From: a bacterium
GTDB taxonomy: Bacteria > UBA8248
Direction of reading: 5' to 3'
DNA: 64,000 bases
NCBI GenBank assembly: GCA_965203325.1
Contig: OZ241875.1
Coordinates: forward strand, 4,000,001-4,064,000
This document shows, piece after piece, positions 26,842-33,743 of this stretch. The stretch's first letter is position 1. Each line of letters opens with the position of its first letter. Position numbers and translations under genes: made by a program. The notes under the pieces were generated by a model, which worked only from the letters and a program-made list of their open reading frames with translations, made no database searches and was not told the origin of the DNA.

Positions 26842-27804
26842 TCACCTCTTATATATACAAGTCCCCGCATCCCCGCGCAGGGCGGGCACCGCATCCTCCA
26901 AAGCCGCGATGTGCACGCGCTCGCCGCCACCCTCGAGAAAGCGGATCGCCGCCTCTATCTTGGGGCCCATGCTGCCGGGCGGGAAGTGGCCCTGGGCGTG
27001 GTATCCCTTTATCTCGTCGAGGGAGATTCTTTCCAACTCGCGCTGCTCGGGCGTCCCGAAGTGGACGGCCACCCTCGGCACGGCGGTGAGGATCATCATC
27101 GTCTCGATCCCCAGCACGTTCGCCATGAGGGCCGAGGTCAAATCCTTGTCGATGACGGCGGCCAGCCCGCGCCGCGCGCCGTCGGCTTCGCGCACGACGG
27201 GGATGCCCCCGCCGCCGCCCGCGATGACCACCGCCCCGCTTTTGGCGATCGTCTCGATGAGCGAGATGTCCACGATGTGTTTCGGCGCAGGCGAGGGAAC
27301 GACGTGCCGCCAGCCGCGTCCTGCGTCCTCGCGGAACGTCCAGCCCATCTCGCGCTCATAGCGCCTCGCCTCTTCTTCCGTGTAGGTGTAGCCCACGAAC
27401 TTGGTCGGCGCGTCGAAGGCCGGGTCCGCCGGGTCGACCTCCACCTGCGTCAGGAGACACACCACGTGGCGGGGGTCACCCGCGCGCCTGAGCGCGTTCT
27501 CGAACGCCTGCATGAGGAGATAGGCGATGCCCCCCTGGCTGTGGGCGACGCAGATGTCGAGCGTCATGGGGGTGACCTGCTCGCTCGACATCGCCTGGCG
27601 CATGAGTATCTTGCCGACGACGGGGCCGTTCCCGTGCGTGATGATGAGTTCGTTTTTGAGCTGCAAGAGGGGGAGCAGGGCACGGCCGGTCGCTGCGGCG
27701 ATGGCGGCCTGTTCCGCCGCGGTGCCGCGTATCTCGGGCGGGTGGGTCGCGTTGCCGCCGACGGCGACGAGCAGGCGGCCTGGAAGATCGGGCGGGGGAG
27801 CCAT
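26842..27804 (-). CDS. arcC: Carbamate kinase
   Basis: VAVGGNA, ITHGNGPVVG, SQGGIAY, PTKFVG, VVPSP.P, GGGGIPV, VIDKDL, GSMGPKI. Confidence 0.92.
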   Translation of the reverse strand: MAPPPDLPGRLLVAVGGNATHPPEIRGTAAEQAAIAAATGRALLPLLQLKNELIITHGNGPVVGKILMRQAMSSEQVTPMTLDICVAHSQGGIAYLLMQAFENALRRAGDPRHVVCLLTQVEVDPADPAFDAPTKFVGYTYTEEEARRYEREMGWTFREDAGRGWRHVVPSPAPKHIVDISLIETIAKSGAVVIAGGGGGIPVVREADGARRGLAAVIDKDLTSALMANVLGIETMMILTAVPRVAVHFGTPEQRELERISLDEIKGYHAQGHFPPGSMGPKIEAAIRFLEGGGERVHIAALEDAVPALRGDAGTCIYKR

Positions 27805-27972
27805 GTCGGATTCTCCCGATGAACCCCCGGCCTCGGGACGCGGTGGCATACAAGTGCAGTCGCAAGACCCGCGGCGCGCCCCGGGCCGGGAGTGACATCT
27901 TACAACAACGGCGGGGTCGGGGGGTAGGGAATTTTATGACGAATCCCTTCCACATCGATCGGGTTCGACCCC

Positions 27973-28191
27973 GCCGTCATTCCGGCGAAAGCCGGAATCC
28001 ATTTTGACTTTCCAACCAGGCGGGGTGGCCATAACCTTGTTGTTGCGCGGCGTCCGGATGCGGAATTCAGAGAATTCGCCTTTCGTTTTTGTGTTCGATT
28101 CCGATCCTCCCCGCCAGGAGTAAAGACGTCCGAACGAGGAGGAGAAAAGGCAAAGGCGAAAATGGATTCCGGCTTTCGCCGGAATGACGGC
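27973..28191. repeat. CGTC-type REP pair (33-bp perfect inverted repeat)
   Basis: GCCGTCATTCCGGCGAAAGCCGGAATCCATTTT at 27973-28005 and its reverse complement at 28159-28191. Confidence 0.85.
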
Positions 28192-28288
28192 AAGAGCGAA
28201 GGGCCGCATGAATGGGATTGTCCAAAAGCCTGGTGGGGCATTGTTTTACCCCCTCTCTCCAGTCGGAATCGACGCCGGAATGACGGCT

Positions 28289-28316
28289 GTAGGGGCGGTT
28301 CGCGAACCGCCCCTAC
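28289..28316. repeat. GTAG-type REP palindrome
   Basis: GTAGGGGCGGTTCGCGAACCGCCCCTAC, identical to 25300-25327. Confidence 0.8.
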
Positions 28317-28348
28317 GGAAACCCCACACCCTCCTTCTCCGCTCCCCC

Positions 28349-28429
28349 CAAACCCTCATTCCCCGCCCGCGTCAAACCCGCATTCATCGCTCCCGTCAAA
28401 CCCTCATTGATCAATCGCGTTTGACCCCC
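28349..28429 (+). repeat. 24-bp-period tandem repeat ending in TCGCGTTTGACCCCC
   Basis: CAAACCC(T/G)CATT at 28349, 28373 and 28397. Confidence 0.65.
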
Positions 28430-28509
28430 GCTCCCCGATAATTCATAATCGAACCATCACTGGATCATGCGACCCGTTTCAGAAGTTGCGCGCAAGTTCA
28501 AATAAAGGG

Positions 28510-28539
28510 TTGACAAAACCGGAAAACTTGCCGCACTAT
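28510..28539 (+). promoter_or_regulatory. Putative sigma70 promoter for the lipoprotein leader
   Basis: Perfect TTGACA at 28510-28515, 18-nt spacer, CACTAT at 28534-28539, in an AT-rich patch. Confidence 0.6.
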
Positions 28540-28714
28540 CATATATGTCAAGCAACAGACGTGAGCAGTAATCACAGGGCCGCCCGCTCGATGCAACACT
28601 GACCCATCCGTGAAGAACGGAGAGAGCGGGAACCCACGAGAGAACCTGCTCTCACGAATTGCCTGACAGCCCGGAAGACGACGACCCAGAAGGTTCCGGG
28701 CATAAGCAGTAAAA

Positions 28715-29379
28715 ATCACGAGGCTAGAGGACTCAACCCACGATGCAGCACGCCACAAAACCCCCTCCAGTTTCGTGATCAATAGAAGAGCAGGAAAGCG
28801 GCAGGCCCGGCGGAAGCCGGGGAAGCAGTAAATCACGAGGCCAGAGGACTCAACCCACGGCGAACCACGCCACCAATCCCCCTCCAGTCTCGTGAAGCGT
28901 AAGGCCCGGCGGCCCGCGCAGTCGGCGGCGCGCCGGGAAGAACGGCAAGCCCGGCGAAAGCCGGGAGATGAAATATCACGAGGCCAGAGGACTCAACTCA
29001 TGATGCACCACGCCACAAATCCCTCTCCAGTCTCGTGATCGATTCAAGGAAAGGCCCGGCAGGAGCCTGAAACGAAAAATTCGGCTCGGGGCCAGGAAGT
29101 TTTTTATCACGAGGCTGGAGGACTCAAACATCATGAATCCTGACCAGAATCCCACACCAGTCTCGTGGATAAGCCGGTCACCGGCCCGGGCGCGTGAGTC
29201 CGGGCCGGCGGCCGCGCGCTCCGGCCCCGGTTCGATGATTCGATGAAACGATAGAAGCCCGATAACGAAGGATAAGGAAAGTCGGAAAGTCAAAGAAAGG
29301 AGGTCAAATCCGAACACTACAGTTTTGTTGGTTGCAAAGCTCTTTAATATCACGAGACTAGGAGGACTCAAAAGTGATG
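28715..29379 (+). repeat. Array of four ~65-nt hairpin units plus a fifth half-unit that is the lipoprotein RBS
   Basis: ATCACGAG(G/A)C..GAGGACTCAA at 28715, 28832, 28975, 29106 and 29349; 3' arms CCAGT(C/T)TCGTG ending about 28779, 28896, 29039 and 29170. Confidence 0.9.
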
Positions 29380-32223
29380 AAACTTGACAGAAACAAAATC
29401 TTTTCATTCATGCTGGCGGCTGCCTTCGCGCTGACGCTGGCGGGCTGCGGTGGCGGCGGCACTGCTACTGCGCCTGACGATGATGGCGGCACGATAGTGG
29501 AGACACCTTATAGCAAAGCGGTTGCGGCAATCGCGGCAGCCGAGACGGAGGCAGATGCGCGGGCGGCGGTCACCACGGCAGTGGCCGCCGGCATCTCGGG
29601 CACGGAGCTCCAGGACCTGAACACGAAGGTCGCCGAGCGCGTGGAGGCCCTGGCCCTGATGGCCCGGATCGATGCGCAGAAGATGGCGATGATGAACGCG
29701 GCCGGCATGATCGACACGTCCGACCTGACGACTCAGGCTGCGATCAATGCGGCCGAGGCCGCCATCGCCGTGCTGAAGAGGGCGATCGCCGCCGCGGCCG
29801 ACGTCGACGACACGTCGATGTACGACGCGCAGGTGACCGCGGCCGAGACAGACGTGGCGACCGCGCAGAGCGCTCTGGACCATGCGGCCCAGACGATGGC
29901 GCTCATGAATGCCGTCGATGACCTTCAGGCAATCGACCTGGCCGACCTGTCGACAAAGGAGAAGATCGACGCCGCCCAGGGCGCCATCGACGCGCTTCAG
30001 ACGGCGCTGGACAACGCGACAGAACTGAGCGCTGCCGAGAAGACCGCGGCCATGACCGAGCTGGGGACCGCCAATCGGGCCGTGGCGAGTGCGCAGGGCA
30101 GGTACGACACCGCAGCCCAGAAGAAGGCGCTCGCCGATGCCGTTGCCACCCTGGCCGCTCTCGACCTCGACAACCTGATGACGCAGGCGCAGATCGACGC
30201 GGCCGTGGCAGCCATCACCGGGGTTAATCTGGCTCTGCAGTCGGCGACCAATCTGACCGACGCCGAGAAGCTCGACGCCACCGTCGACGTGACGGTGGCC
30301 CAGCGGAAGGTGGACCGTGCGGAGACGGCTCTCGACGAGAATGTCGGCCGGCAGCGCATGGCGCTGATGGAAGCCGGCACGGCCCTTGCCGCCATCGACC
30401 TCGACGATCTGGACACGCCGGAAAAGATCACCGCGGCCAACGATGCCGTTAACGCGCTCAAGGCGGCGCTGGACGGGGCGACCCACCTGAGCGATTCCGA
30501 AAAGGCCACGTACCAGACCCAACTGAACGAGGCCACGGAGGACGTGAGGATGGCGCAGACCGGCATGGACCGCGCCGGTCGCATGATGGCCCAGCGCACG
30601 GCGATCACGAGTGCCGTCACGATGGCCCGCACTGCGGTCGCGGGTGTGAGCGACACCTCGACCGATAGCGAGGTTGCTGCTGCGGACGCGGCGGTTGCCG
30701 CTCTCAAGAAGGCGATCGACGATGCGGTAGACCTTCCCGAAGGCGATACCGACGTTGCCAGCGCCAGGGGAACGCTCGCCACGCTCGAGCCGCAGCTAGC
30801 CGCCGCCAAGACGAGCCGCACGGCCGCGTTGGAGGAAAAGGCCAAGGCGGATCGGGCGGCCATGGCGAAAACCGGCAAGGATCTGCACGCGGCGCTGGGG
30901 CCGCCTGCTGCGGCTGACACGACCGCGCTGGACAACATCGAGGCACTAACAGCAAGCTCCTTGGTGACATCAGGGGCGACACCAGGCCTTACGATCGACG
31001 CCGTTCAAGGAGCGGGAACGCTCCACGATACTGATGCTGCCGGAAACCCAGACGCCGTGCGCCTCAATCCTGGCGATTCCGCCGGATCGTTGGGCGGTTG
31101 GGAAGGCACGAACTATGCCCGTTCCCAGGGTAGTGGTAGCGCGATGGTCACCAACGAAGCCAGGATCTACACCAACAAGGGTCCAGGGACGACCCGGCCC
31201 TTTAGCAATACAGAGACAAACGGAAAGTACTTGCTCATAACCGCATCGGGCGCGACTAAGGGTCACGTGCTGCTGGGCGATACCACTTCGGGGCAGGAAA
31301 GCCCGGTCACGCGCGCCAGTGCTCCCGCCTTCACGCACTCGGGAACACAGACTCACCAAGTGCCCGACGAGAGCGACGCATTCTACACCAGCGGCACCTA
31401 CGACGGCGCGCCTGGGCGATTCCGTTGCGTGGACACGTCTGCTACGGATCGTTGCTCCTCGACCAACGACGGCACAGGCAGGGTGAGTGCCTTGGGTGGA
31501 ACTTGGCATTTCAAGCCCGATGCCGGCGCGATGGTGATGGAGGCCGATGCCCACTACCTGTATTACGGCTGGTGGGTGAGTAAGGACGATGAGGGCAAGC
31601 CGACGGCGGCCAGCGCGTTCGTGGGTAGATTTGGGACCCCCGGTGATGACTCCGCCACTGACGATGATGGCCTCAACGCTGGATGGACCGGTGGCTTTGA
31701 CGCTCTCACCGGCGCGGCGGCTCTTACCGGTTCGGCGACCTATTCTGGCAATGCCGCCGGCAAGTTCGCCATAAGCAACCCGTTCGACGGCACCGGCAAC
31801 GGCGGTCACTTCACGGCGGACGCCGAGTTTCAGGCGAAGTTCAGTGGTTCTTCTGGCGTCGGTATATCCGGCACCATCGACAACTTCCGGCTGAACGACG
31901 GGACCGAAGACCCGGGCTGGAGCGTGTCGCTGGGGCTCAGGGGCTTTGGCACCGACGGAGCCATCGGTGCTGCCGTGGACATTCCCACGACGACTGTTAA
32001 TGAGTCAGCGGCTGGCGCCGGCACGGTCTGGACCATTGGCGGCAATTCGGCGGCGCGGTCCGGCATCTGGGGCGGCACGATGTATGAAGAGACGCCGGGT
32101 GATCCCAGTGCTACCGGACCCGGCGACGGCAGCAACATCCCGGACACGGTGACCGGAACCTTCTACTCCGAGTTCAGCACCATCGGCCGGATGGTCGGCG
32201 CGTTCGGCGCGGAGAAGCAGTAG
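29374..32223 (+). CDS. Surface lipoprotein with Ala-rich helical repeats and a C-terminal transferrin-binding-protein-like beta-barrel
   Basis: Lipobox LAGC followed by GGGG; ~77-aa repeats (IDL.DL.T...I.AA..AI.AL..AL..AT.L...EK); YLYYGWW, GSATYSGNAAG, FTADA, ISGTIDNF, terminal MVGAFGAEKQ. Confidence 0.8.
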   Translation: MMKLDRNKIFSFMLAAAFALTLAGCGGGGTATAPDDDGGTIVETPYSKAVAAIAAAETEADARAAVTTAVAAGISGTELQDLNTKVAERVEALALMARIDAQKMAMMNAAGMIDTSDLTTQAAINAAEAAIAVLKRAIAAAADVDDTSMYDAQVTAAETDVATAQSALDHAAQTMALMNAVDDLQAIDLADLSTKEKIDAAQGAIDALQTALDNATELSAAEKTAAMTELGTANRAVASAQGRYDTAAQKKALADAVATLAALDLDNLMTQAQIDAAVAAITGVNLALQSATNLTDAEKLDATVDVTVAQRKVDRAETALDENVGRQRMALMEAGTALAAIDLDDLDTPEKITAANDAVNALKAALDGATHLSDSEKATYQTQLNEATEDVRMAQTGMDRAGRMMAQRTAITSAVTMARTAVAGVSDTSTDSEVAAADAAVAALKKAIDDAVDLPEGDTDVASARGTLATLEPQLAAAKTSRTAALEEKAKADRAAMAKTGKDLHAALGPPAAADTTALDNIEALTASSLVTSGATPGLTIDAVQGAGTLHDTDAAGNPDAVRLNPGDSAGSLGGWEGTNYARSQGSGSAMVTNEARIYTNKGPGTTRPFSNTETNGKYLLITASGATKGHVLLGDTTSGQESPVTRASAPAFTHSGTQTHQVPDESDAFYTSGTYDGAPGRFRCVDTSATDRCSSTNDGTGRVSALGGTWHFKPDAGAMVMEADAHYLYYGWWVSKDDEGKPTAASAFVGRFGTPGDDSATDDDGLNAGWTGGFDALTGAAALTGSATYSGNAAGKFAISNPFDGTGNGGHFTADAEFQAKFSGSSGVGISGTIDNFRLNDGTEDPGWSVSLGLRGFGTDGAIGAAVDIPTTTVNESAAGAGTVWTIGGNSAARSGIWGGTMYEETPGDPSATGPGDGSNIPDTVTGTFYSEFSTIGRMVGAFGAEKQ

Positions 32224-32813: not shown

Positions 32814-33233
32814 CTATTTATTCTTCGAGTGGTCTTGAATCATTTCTCCTGGACTGCTTCTTAAATCAACATCCGGAACAATCTGCCGAGGCTTGAACGT
32901 GATCCGGTGATGGAAGACGCTCACGTCCGCCGTGTCGAGTTGCTCCGCAAAATACGTCACATTATCGCTCAACCCCAAAAAATGTTTCTTGAAACTGTCG
33001 CTCCCCAGCTTGCATGTAACTTCGAGCTGGTTCTCCTGATCCTCAATCGAGCACCGCCCCTCGATTGTCAACATATAAGTATCCGTAATCCCGTTGTAGA
33101 ATACGATTCTCCGGTCGATCTCGAAATTGTCCGCCGACTTCGACAGATTATACGATGCGATATCCGCATCGTCCTGACACCCCGCTGCCAGAAACATCAA
33201 GAACATGGCAATGGCCAACCGCTTTATCCGCAT
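32814..33233 (-). CDS. Small lipoprotein resembling a widespread phage-associated family
   Basis: Lipobox AAGC, then ADIASYNLSKSADNFEIDRRIVFYNGITD.YMLTIEGRCS...KKHFLGLSDNVTYF; lower GC than neighbours. Confidence 0.7.
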   Translation of the reverse strand: MRIKRLAIAMFLMFLAAGCQDDADIASYNLSKSADNFEIDRRIVFYNGITDTYMLTIEGRCSIEDQENQLEVTCKLGSDSFKKHFLGLSDNVTYFAEQLDTADVSVFHHRITFKPRQIVPDVDLRSSPGEMIQDHSKNK

Positions 33234-33743
33234 GGCGTCTTTTCCCCGATGGCGTTTTCCGCACATTTTCAGTTCCCTCCCTCATTTCTCTCCTCTGGTA
33301 ACGTATTGAATCCCCATGAAAAGAGGGGCCGCGCCTCGTCAAGCGTCCAGGCGCCGCGAACCCCCCTCCTCGGGGTTATCGAAAAAGTCCTTGCGGGTCG
33401 GTCGGGATTCTATTGCAGGCGGCGGTCCTTCCCCGGGACCGCCCCACGCATACATGCGGGTCTTGTCGTGGGTGAAAAAATCAGGGTCATCTGGAACTCT
33501 CGTGGACGCCCAGTATAAGAAGGTGTTCCGCGCGTCGTCAAACATCCGCGGGGCGGGGGCGCATTTCCCCGCATTTGCCGTACTCCGTGAAATCGCGTAC
33601 TCGGGTATCGTGCGCGCGAAGCGGGGAAACGGCGATCCCTGCTCGAACCATCGGGAGCGATCGCCCCGGGGAGAGGAGGCTTTCTGATGGAATCAGGCGA
33701 GGGGGCGAGGGTGGAAGCGGCGAATCCCCCAATGCCCTTGTCA

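Follow-up and report, generated by a model that had tools for sequence, protein, structure and literature searches.

The stretch of bacterial DNA analysed here (the window; 64,000 nucleotides (nt) of contig OZ241875.1) contains the gene for a lipoprotein of 949 amino acids (aa), which is preceded by a leader of ~830 nt. Within this leader lie four units, numbered 1 to 4, each of which is predicted to fold into a hairpin and resembles the translation initiation region (TIR) of the lipoprotein gene itself, including its Shine–Dalgarno (SD) sequence. A first-pass annotation had noticed micro open reading frames (ORFs) in these units and had proposed that they encode tandem leader peptides. Here, we describe the units, their micro-ORFs, and their conservation in related genomes, and weigh the explanations for an array in which a gene's own start region appears to be repeated upstream of it.

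The window contains four occurrences of the 5′ arm of the units, ATCACGAGGCYRGAGGACTCAA, with an expectation of 0 from 100 shuffles. The arms match the real TIR, in which ATCACGAGACTAGGAGGACTCAA constitutes a fifth, slightly different copy. The likeness extends beyond the SD sequence: a 28-nt segment at the start of unit 4, spanning the SD and the start codon and continuing past the ATG, is 82% identical to the real start (repeat family D6), and the first codons of this unit, ATGAATCCTGACCAGAAT, resemble the gene's own, ATGAAACTTGACAGAAAC. Since both the 5′ arms and the start of unit 4 match the real TIR, each unit is, as judged from the sequence, a diverged duplicate of the gene's TIR (SD arm, start codon, and first codons) with an inherited ATG, to which a C-rich anti-TIR arm is joined.

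The unit hairpins of the window fold at −19.2 to −24.6 kcal/mol with GAGG paired to CCUC, and the real start region alone is unstructured. For comparison, we collected 36 units from 11 genomes and 2 units from a more divergent genome (G014), giving 38 units, of which 27 are non-terminal and 11 are terminal, as is unit 4. The hairpin was present in all 38 units of these 12 genomes. Standard pairs filled 82% of 543 cells, versus 33–57% when the 3′ partner was slid by 1–3 columns, and the changes in the stem were almost all pair-preserving (A-U to G-U; G-C to G-U to A-U). Both the 5′ arm (22 nt) and the first part of the loop (GGACUCAA) mimic the real TIR and were kept far more strictly than the stem requires.

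The 3′ arm can be read in two ways. As RNA, the tail CC(C/U)-(C/U)CU-CCA-GUC-UCG-UGA is the anti-SD arm; as codons, it gives P-x-P-V-S-stop, and the A of the stop codon pairs with the U of AUCACGAG. In 24 of the 27 non-terminal units, the predicted duplex of the 3′ arm was stabler with the real TIR as partner than with the unit's own 5′ arm (means, −24.5 vs −22.4 kcal/mol). The best complement of the real TIR was the 3′ arm of unit 2, which belongs to a type that lacks an ATG (−27.4 kcal/mol vs −22.0 kcal/mol with its own arm). Among the terminal 3′ arms, 5/11 preferred the real TIR. At one position where the decoys have G, the real TIR has A; in 34/38 units, the opposite base is U, which alone among the bases pairs with both. 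In minimum free energy (MFE) folds of the whole leader, 13–16 of 17 nucleotides of the real TIR were paired with an upstream 3′ arm in 12/12 genomes. The probability that the real SD is paired to upstream sequence was 0.45–1.00, and one decoy SD was partly free (paired probability, 0.44–0.75). When the upstream sequence was shuffled in one genome (G000), the mean probability fell to 0.34, and 0/12 shuffles reached the observed value of 0.99.

The four tiny frames described in the first-pass annotation, namely three ORFs and the ATG-less frame of unit 2, lie exactly at the coordinates that it had given. Unit 1 reads from the ATG at 28743 to the TGA at 28776–28778 (MQHATKPPPVS), and unit 3 from the ATG at 29000 to the TGA at 29036–29038 (MMHHATNPSPVS). 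The equivalent frame of unit 2 (28857–28895) begins with ACG at 28857 and ends with TGA at 28893–28895. In unit 4, TGG replaces the TGA of the other units, and the ORF runs to 37 aa. Counted from GAGGA, the ATG lies at 11 nt in unit 1 and at 10 nt in unit 4, unit 3 gives distances of 8 and 11 nt, and the real gene has its GTG at 7 nt and its ATG at 10 nt; the offsets, claimed to be the same, are thus similar (8–11 nt vs 7/10 nt) and not identical. Of the differences between units that had been put forward as synonymous, GTT/GTC and ACA/ACC are real, but most between-unit differences change the amino acid. The idea that a translating ribosome would cover the anti-SD arm agrees with the frames, in that each micro-ORF spans exactly through that arm.

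Across the 12 genomes, the ATG was in frame with the stop in 18/27 non-terminal units, whose peptides follow M(M)-x-H-A-[TAVE]-[KNR]-P-[SP]-P-V-S. Seven of the 27 lacked an ATG. Six of these belong to one orthologous type with GGCG at the ATG position, and the seventh is unit 3 of G010, with AAG in place of the ATG found in its close relative G011. Two further units (unit 2 of G007 and of G022) retain an ATG with a +1 shift. Three ATG-less units also carry one-nucleotide indels, and in one ATG-less unit (G017, unit 2) the stop was lost by a compensatory U-A to A-U swap that retained the stem pair. Frame-breaking indels and unconserved starts or stops, which the first-pass annotation had itself named as evidence that would refute leader peptides, were therefore found in a part of the units.

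In the 25 aligned non-terminal units, the three ATG columns were 0.76, 0.72, and 1.00 identical (mean 0.83); the loop averaged 0.87 and had several other invariant positions. The ATG-less type retains the same loop sequence ('NHATNPPPVS'), so that conservation of the loop does not depend on translation. We also considered the excess of frame breaks in ATG-less units (4/6 of the GGCG type vs 2/21 others) as evidence of coding selection, and rejected it because the indels sit in a C5 homopolymer of the ATG-less type and one indel event occurs among the ATG-bearing units that share this run. On this sequence comparison, the peptides of the non-terminal units show no protein-level conservation; it is the hairpins that are kept.

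All 11 terminal units contain an in-frame ATG, as the variants ATC-ATG, ATG-ATG, and ATG-ACG always leave one. All read TGG in place of the stop, resulting in ORFs of 33–47 aa. Variability at the three codon positions was 22/38/27 (codons 1–28), with position 2 the most variable. The codons of the hairpin loop change freely, one-nucleotide indels shift the distal part in 4/11 genomes, and G014 is devoid of such a long terminal ORF. Because of this variability pattern, the indels, and the state of G014, no protein appears to be conserved in the terminal unit; by its substitution pattern, which is not of a coding type, at most a start is conserved. Overall, the observation of micro-ORFs was confirmed, and the interpretation that the first-pass annotation had given them was partly supported.

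We examined how far the array extends among relatives. A search with the unit pattern matched 11/61 genomes, all from one genus. A covariance model of the unit (R1), run within the family, detected 12/42 genomes, all in the same genus (11/22 plus the window's own genome), and added G014. Arrays of 2–4 units precede the same lipoprotein gene in these 12 genomes, which indicates that the array is not a chance event. A 21-mer of the real TIR (29351–29371) was found with 0 mismatches in 12/23 genomes of the genus, exactly the 12 that bear arrays, and was not found in the other 11 searched; it occurs once in the window's own genome. A pattern scan across the genomes of 185,579 species returned 30 stretches. 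All multi-copy matches fell in the same genome group, and the single matches in unrelated phyla are probably due to chance.

Within the window's genome, the unit motif, the real TIR, and the 3′-arm motif are confined to the lipoprotein locus, apart from one half-similar site about 1.5 Mb away. This intergenic site (L005, 1501–1522) reads ATCACGAGGCTATAGGACCCAA, with 2 mismatches to the unit 5′ arm; the same sequence recurs in G012 and G010, and no matching 3′ arm was seen by eye. At full match, no further copy of either the anti-TIR arm or the real TIR that could act in trans was found elsewhere in the genome, and the 3′-arm motif has four other genomic sites, each with 2 mismatches. In G014, the covariance model gave three weaker matches outside the lipoprotein locus (contig 1, at about 3227166, 232839, and 2488090; E 3e-5 to 4e-4). 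Metagenome runs from sponges and corals contain the window stretch, and contigs from the leader of a close relative are present in two metatranscriptome runs. These contigs show neither ends nor strand nor level and may stem from DNA carry-over; we used them only as a weak hint of read-through and attach no meaning to parts that they leave uncovered.

The features of the leader are listed in Table 1.

Table 1. Features of the leader and of the lipoprotein gene (window coordinates).
Feature	Position	Strand	Remarks
Conserved promoter-like region	28482..28542	+	near-invariant in 11 aligned genomes
Perfect palindrome TTGCGCGCAA	28486–28495	+	just upstream of TTGACA
TTGACA and TATCAT	28510–28515 and 28537–28542	+	spacer of 21 nt, long for sigma-70
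Structured 5′ domain	28547..28701	+	first ~155 nt of leader; multi-helix (RNAalifold, 11 genomes)
Unit 1, decoy-TIR hairpin	28715..28779	+	5′ arm 28715–28736; fold −19.2 kcal/mol, GAGG paired to CCUC
GNRA-tetraloop hairpin CCCGGC-GGAA-GCCGGG	28806..28821	+	ahead of unit 2; repeat families D5 and D7, folds
Unit 2, decoy-TIR hairpin, GGCG type	28832..28896	+	no ATG; fold −24.6 kcal/mol
GNRA-tetraloop hairpin, second copy	28950–28965	+	ahead of unit 3; repeat families D5 and D7
Unit 3, decoy-TIR hairpin	28975..29039	+	micro-ORF 29000–29038; sequence and fold
T-run before terminal unit	29100..29105	+	kept in most genomes; weak A-tract/GC hairpin upstream
Unit 4 (terminal)	29106..29246	+	hairpin 29106–29171, ORF 29133–29246; sequence, alignment, fold
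Strong SD-like, startless GAAAGGAGG	29295..29303	+	conserved in most of 11 aligned genomes
Real TIR, ATCACGAGACTAGGAGGACTCAA	29349..29379	+	followed by GTG 29374 and ATG 29377; locally unstructured, z +1.71
Lipoprotein gene (949 aa)	29374..32223	+	signal peptide ends LTLAGC; Ala-rich middle; Gly/Thr-rich C-terminal domain

At the 5′ end, the palindrome and the TTGACA/TATCAT pair look like an operator beside an unusual promoter. A sigma-70 promoter scan did not list this pair and listed TTGACC/CATAAT at 28421–28449 instead. The palindrome block is duplicated in G014 (L072, about 1260–1300). In the 5′ domain, an outer helix pairs GUCAAG (28547–28552) with CCUGAC (28662–28667) and shows two-sided pair changes, UA to CG in 4 sequences and AU to GC in 2 (RNAalifold, 11 genomes). 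A conserved hairpin lies at 28669–28701 (loop AAGACGACGACCCAGAAGG), and the near-invariant hairpin loop after the outer helix reads AAGACGACGACCCAG. The domain, which matched no Rfam family, could act as a ligand or protein sensor for the whole leader.

Ahead of each of units 1–3 stands a GNRA-looped GC hairpin. Before the terminal unit, the hairpin upstream of the T-run folds no better than shuffles (z −0.74), and a scan of 28300–29500 detected 0 intrinsic terminator sites. The ORF of unit 4 reads on through a strong GC hairpin (29173–29217), and 29103–29250 folds at −69.3 kcal/mol. The startless SD-like sequence GAAAGGAGG, which we take to match the published STAB-SD sequence, lies in an A-rich stretch that is unstructured (region z +0.59 vs shuffles), about 75 nt ahead of the real start. 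It has no ATG, GTG, or TTG within the next 25 nt, and the first TTG is about 31 nt downstream. The last 106 nt ahead of the real TIR are predicted to be unstructured. TAATAT at 29343–29348 was considered as an internal promoter by the gene and rejected, with no acceptable −35 element by eye and nothing in the promoter scan. An Rfam cmscan of 27800–29600 with E values up to 10 gave nothing at gathering score; the best match in the array, c-di-GMP-I-GGC (22.9 bits vs a gathering score of 59), spans only a GNRA hairpin.

The lipoprotein itself matched no Pfam, PDB, or NCBIfam family at threshold (Pfam, 0 families). Its only PDB sequence match was JetC (E 0.36), and the sub-threshold NCBIfam matches fell on the signal peptide only. 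Between genomes, the signal peptide DNA is nearly identical and the mature protein strongly different. In metagenome and metatranscriptome contigs, the lipobox part is attached to other sequences upstream (loose ends at 29412) and to divergent ones downstream (loose ends at 29460). The alike signal-peptide DNA, the divergent mature protein, and the loose contig ends together suggest that the signal peptide is a cassette shared among fast-evolving lipoproteins. Around the leader, we also noted a cluster of repetitive extragenic palindrome (REP)-like hairpin repeats (27900–28410), in which BjrC68, a Bradyrhizobiaceae small RNA, scored below threshold (26 bits vs a gathering score of 39); a 24-nt tandem repeat of 3.6 copies (28322–28408) between a carbamate-kinase-like gene and the leader; and, just downstream of the lipoprotein gene, a 150-aa ORF on the minus strand (32814–33266) that matches Pfam Phage_VG64 (E 2.8e-53).

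We favour, at a probability of roughly 55%, the reading that the array is an RNA-level decoy/anti-TIR switch in which the micro-ORFs are real but secondary by-products. The start codon of the units would have been inherited from the GTG-ATG of the gene, and selection would keep the RNA device, whose anti-TIR arms may pair with either of two partners, their own decoy arm and the real TIR, the latter somewhat better. From the anatomy, the conservation, and the predicted pairing preferences, we infer an order of folding and an ON/OFF logic. During transcription, the local hairpins would form first and neutralise the anti-TIR arms, so that the real TIR stays accessible (ON); one anti-TIR arm would capture the real SD in a stabler long-range state at equilibrium (OFF). 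Lipoprotein translation would thus be set by decoy TIRs competing with the real TIR. The peptides would have no function of their own, and sensing of proline, histidine, or elongation factor P (EF-P) would lie outside the conserved design.

Several results weigh against this reading. Covariation in the unit hairpin was within the range of column shuffles, 65/500 of which reached the observed score; only two pairs had changes on both sides, and the RNAalifold covariation term was −0.21, in a set of units that are closely alike. The pairing preferences are in-silico energies, and MFE folds of 620–970 nt are unreliable. The shuffle control was weak in G017, where the mean was 0.28 and 2/12 shuffles reached the observed 0.66. 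An in-frame ATG is kept in 29/38 units overall, including 11/11 terminal units. Both units of G014, the most divergent genome, keep intact 12-codon ORFs, and one of them ends in TAA through a G-to-A change that breaks a stem pair and keeps the stop. Minor-allele counts by position in the loop codons (22/9/26) are coding-like, albeit over only 5 codons and with counts that are phylogenetically non-independent. The kept ATGs, the G014 ORFs, and the loop codon pattern leave room for selection on translation as such.

Such selection might act through translation-coupled unlocking, in which the act of translation, not the peptide, would be the signal. An anti-TIR arm that holds the real TIR would leave its own decoy SD and AUG free; ribosomes initiating there would run through codons 7–12, which constitute the arm, melt the duplex, and open the real start. 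In every ATG-bearing unit, the two frame-shifted ones included, the ORF crosses the whole 3′ arm, with the stop at the last stem pair in 18/27, and the folds at equilibrium pair the real SD and keep one decoy SD partly accessible. The ATG is maintained in all terminal units via alternative positions and in 2/2 units of G014, and known precedents act in this manner (PMC11339067, PMC8092293). These points are offset by the 7/27 non-terminal units without an ATG, among them the type with the strongest anti-TIR arm (−27.4 kcal/mol), which is the MFE partner of the real TIR in three genomes (G010, G011, and G012). The start was also lost between close relatives (ATG to AAG in G010, retained in G011), and in the local fold the decoy SDs are hidden within −19 to −25 kcal/mol hairpins. 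We regard this explanation as tentative and, on balance, doubtful. The corresponding picture of a multi-copy decoy start-site switch, in which 2–4 ribosome-binding site (RBS) mimics and peptide-independent micro-ORFs would gate lipoprotein synthesis by ribosome availability, is likewise possible but unlikely.

The peptide-based explanation of the first-pass annotation, in which stalling on Pro-rich codons of tandem leader peptides would sense Pro/His supply or EF-P and link translation state to lipoprotein expression in an mgtL/mgtP- or attenuator-like manner, was not borne out and appears very improbable. It draws on the PPP in unit 1, the HH in unit 3, the position of the Pro codons on the anti-SD arm, and the existence of Pro-codon leader ORFs, such as the mgtCBR tandem attenuators (PMC3641672). 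The 18 intact non-terminal ORFs read PSP in 13 cases, PPP in 4, and PST in 1, and PPP occurs in 0/11 terminal ORFs, which amounts to 4/29 ATG-bearing in-frame ORFs; P-S-P or P-T-P is usual in most units, so that conserved consecutive Pro codons of the mgtL/mgtP type were not found. His codons number two at most per ORF, and single ones vary (H, R, L). Neither a run of regulatory codons in the unit ORFs of the 12 genomes nor, in 28300–29500, a terminator alternating with an antiterminator before the gene was detected. The first-pass annotation had itself cautioned that the Pro codons may be a by-product, and this caution holds: the CCUCC anti-SD arm read in frame gives Pro codons and fully explains them.

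The over-conservation of the 22-nt 5′ arm and loop start, beyond the needs of the stem and in the likeness of the real TIR, would find a reason if the decoy SD-AUG sites and GAAAGGAGG bound 30S ribosomal subunits, a protein, or a small RNA, thereby protecting the leader from 5′-end decay or titrating a repressor of the real TIR. The conserved startless SD fits such a stabiliser or sponge, as does the STAB-SD precedent, also a long leader processed to a stable form (PMC12970973). But the decoy SDs are engaged in stable hairpin pairing, no protein or small RNA emerged as a candidate binder (the 3′-arm motif at full match being restricted to the locus, with its four other sites at 2 mismatches), and the better fit of the 3′ arms to the real TIR than to their own arms would be left unexplained; we consider this role improbable. 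The least probable explanation makes the upstream part an independent small RNA that would start from the conserved promoter, stop at the T-run before unit 4, and not belong to the lipoprotein mRNA. The 5′ domain is structured, and the T-run with its A-tract and hairpin (29052–29105) is kept in most genomes; against this stand the absence of terminator sites in the scan and a hairpin that folds no better than shuffles. Furthermore, a metatranscriptome contig of a close relative crosses the T-run from unit 3 to the signal peptide (28992–29172, 29204–29460), although it is no proof of a single transcript and may stem from DNA carry-over, and no sigma-70-like promoter was found beside the gene in the scan.

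The decoy/anti-TIR switch that we favour can be compared with known systems. In MS2, translation of the coat gene opens the replicase start site, which is held by long-range pairing (PMC11339067). The array shares the feature of a downstream RBS that is complementary, in silico, to a distant segment inside an upstream frame, here the predicted anti-TIR arms in the micro-ORFs, and that ribosome transit opens in MS2 (PMC11339067). Unlike in MS2, the array frames, whose translation is putative, comprise 11–12 codons in 2–4 tandem copies, each with a decoy copy of the target and some startless. In Salmonella, translation of mgtQ frees the sequestered RBS of mgtB (PMC8092293), and short ORFs of the mgtCBR leader, of which mgtP carries Pro codons, have been proposed to choose between alternative stem-loops (PMC3641672). 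The array resembles this leader (mgtM/mgtP, mgtQ) in being long and having several short ORFs (PMC3641672, PMC8092293). It differs in the lack of conserved consecutive Pro codons (4/18) and of any terminator found, in units that repeat the target's TIR, and in having no sequence relation.

The STAB-SD of Bacillus thuringiensis cry3Aa, an SD-like site that lies far upstream in a very long leader and does not serve initiation, is believed to bind 30S subunits and to make the mRNA more stable (PMC12970973). GAAAGGAGG, without a usable downstream start, is a STAB-SD-like feature by sequence, with a putative stabilising role; the window belongs to another phylum, and its hairpin units have no counterpart in cry3Aa. 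In sigma-B genes of B. subtilis, the upstream sequence of a long isoform represses translation, and a shorter isoform escapes (PMC8208050). Unlike in that case, no internal promoter was found by the promoter scan, and the sequestering elements of the array are tandem TIR-mimicking repeats. RNA thermometers such as ROSE and fourU are SD-sequestering hairpins with imperfect SD/anti-SD pairing. The unit hairpins share this imperfect pairing (G-U pairs, an A × C mismatch) but match no Rfam family, hold decoy SDs instead of the gene's own SD, and occur in arrays. Repeated self-mimic start-site architecture was found neither in the literature searched for it nor in Rfam. The class of mechanism, long-range SD sequestration that is possibly relieved by translation of upstream ORFs, is known, and the repeated self-mimic design appears to be new.

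For the annotation of micro-ORFs, the locus carries a caution: frames with an SD, an ATG, and a stop can arise from RNA structure and from descent from a real start, and calls of leader peptides need frame conservation weighed against how well the surrounding RNA is conserved. Should the array work as proposed, duplication of a gene's own start region would constitute a new route to translational control, in which repeated decoy/anti-decoy modules compete with the real ribosome-binding site. In this uncultured sponge- and coral-associated lineage, the array may control a large, fast-evolving surface lipoprotein, which is possibly relevant to life with the host.

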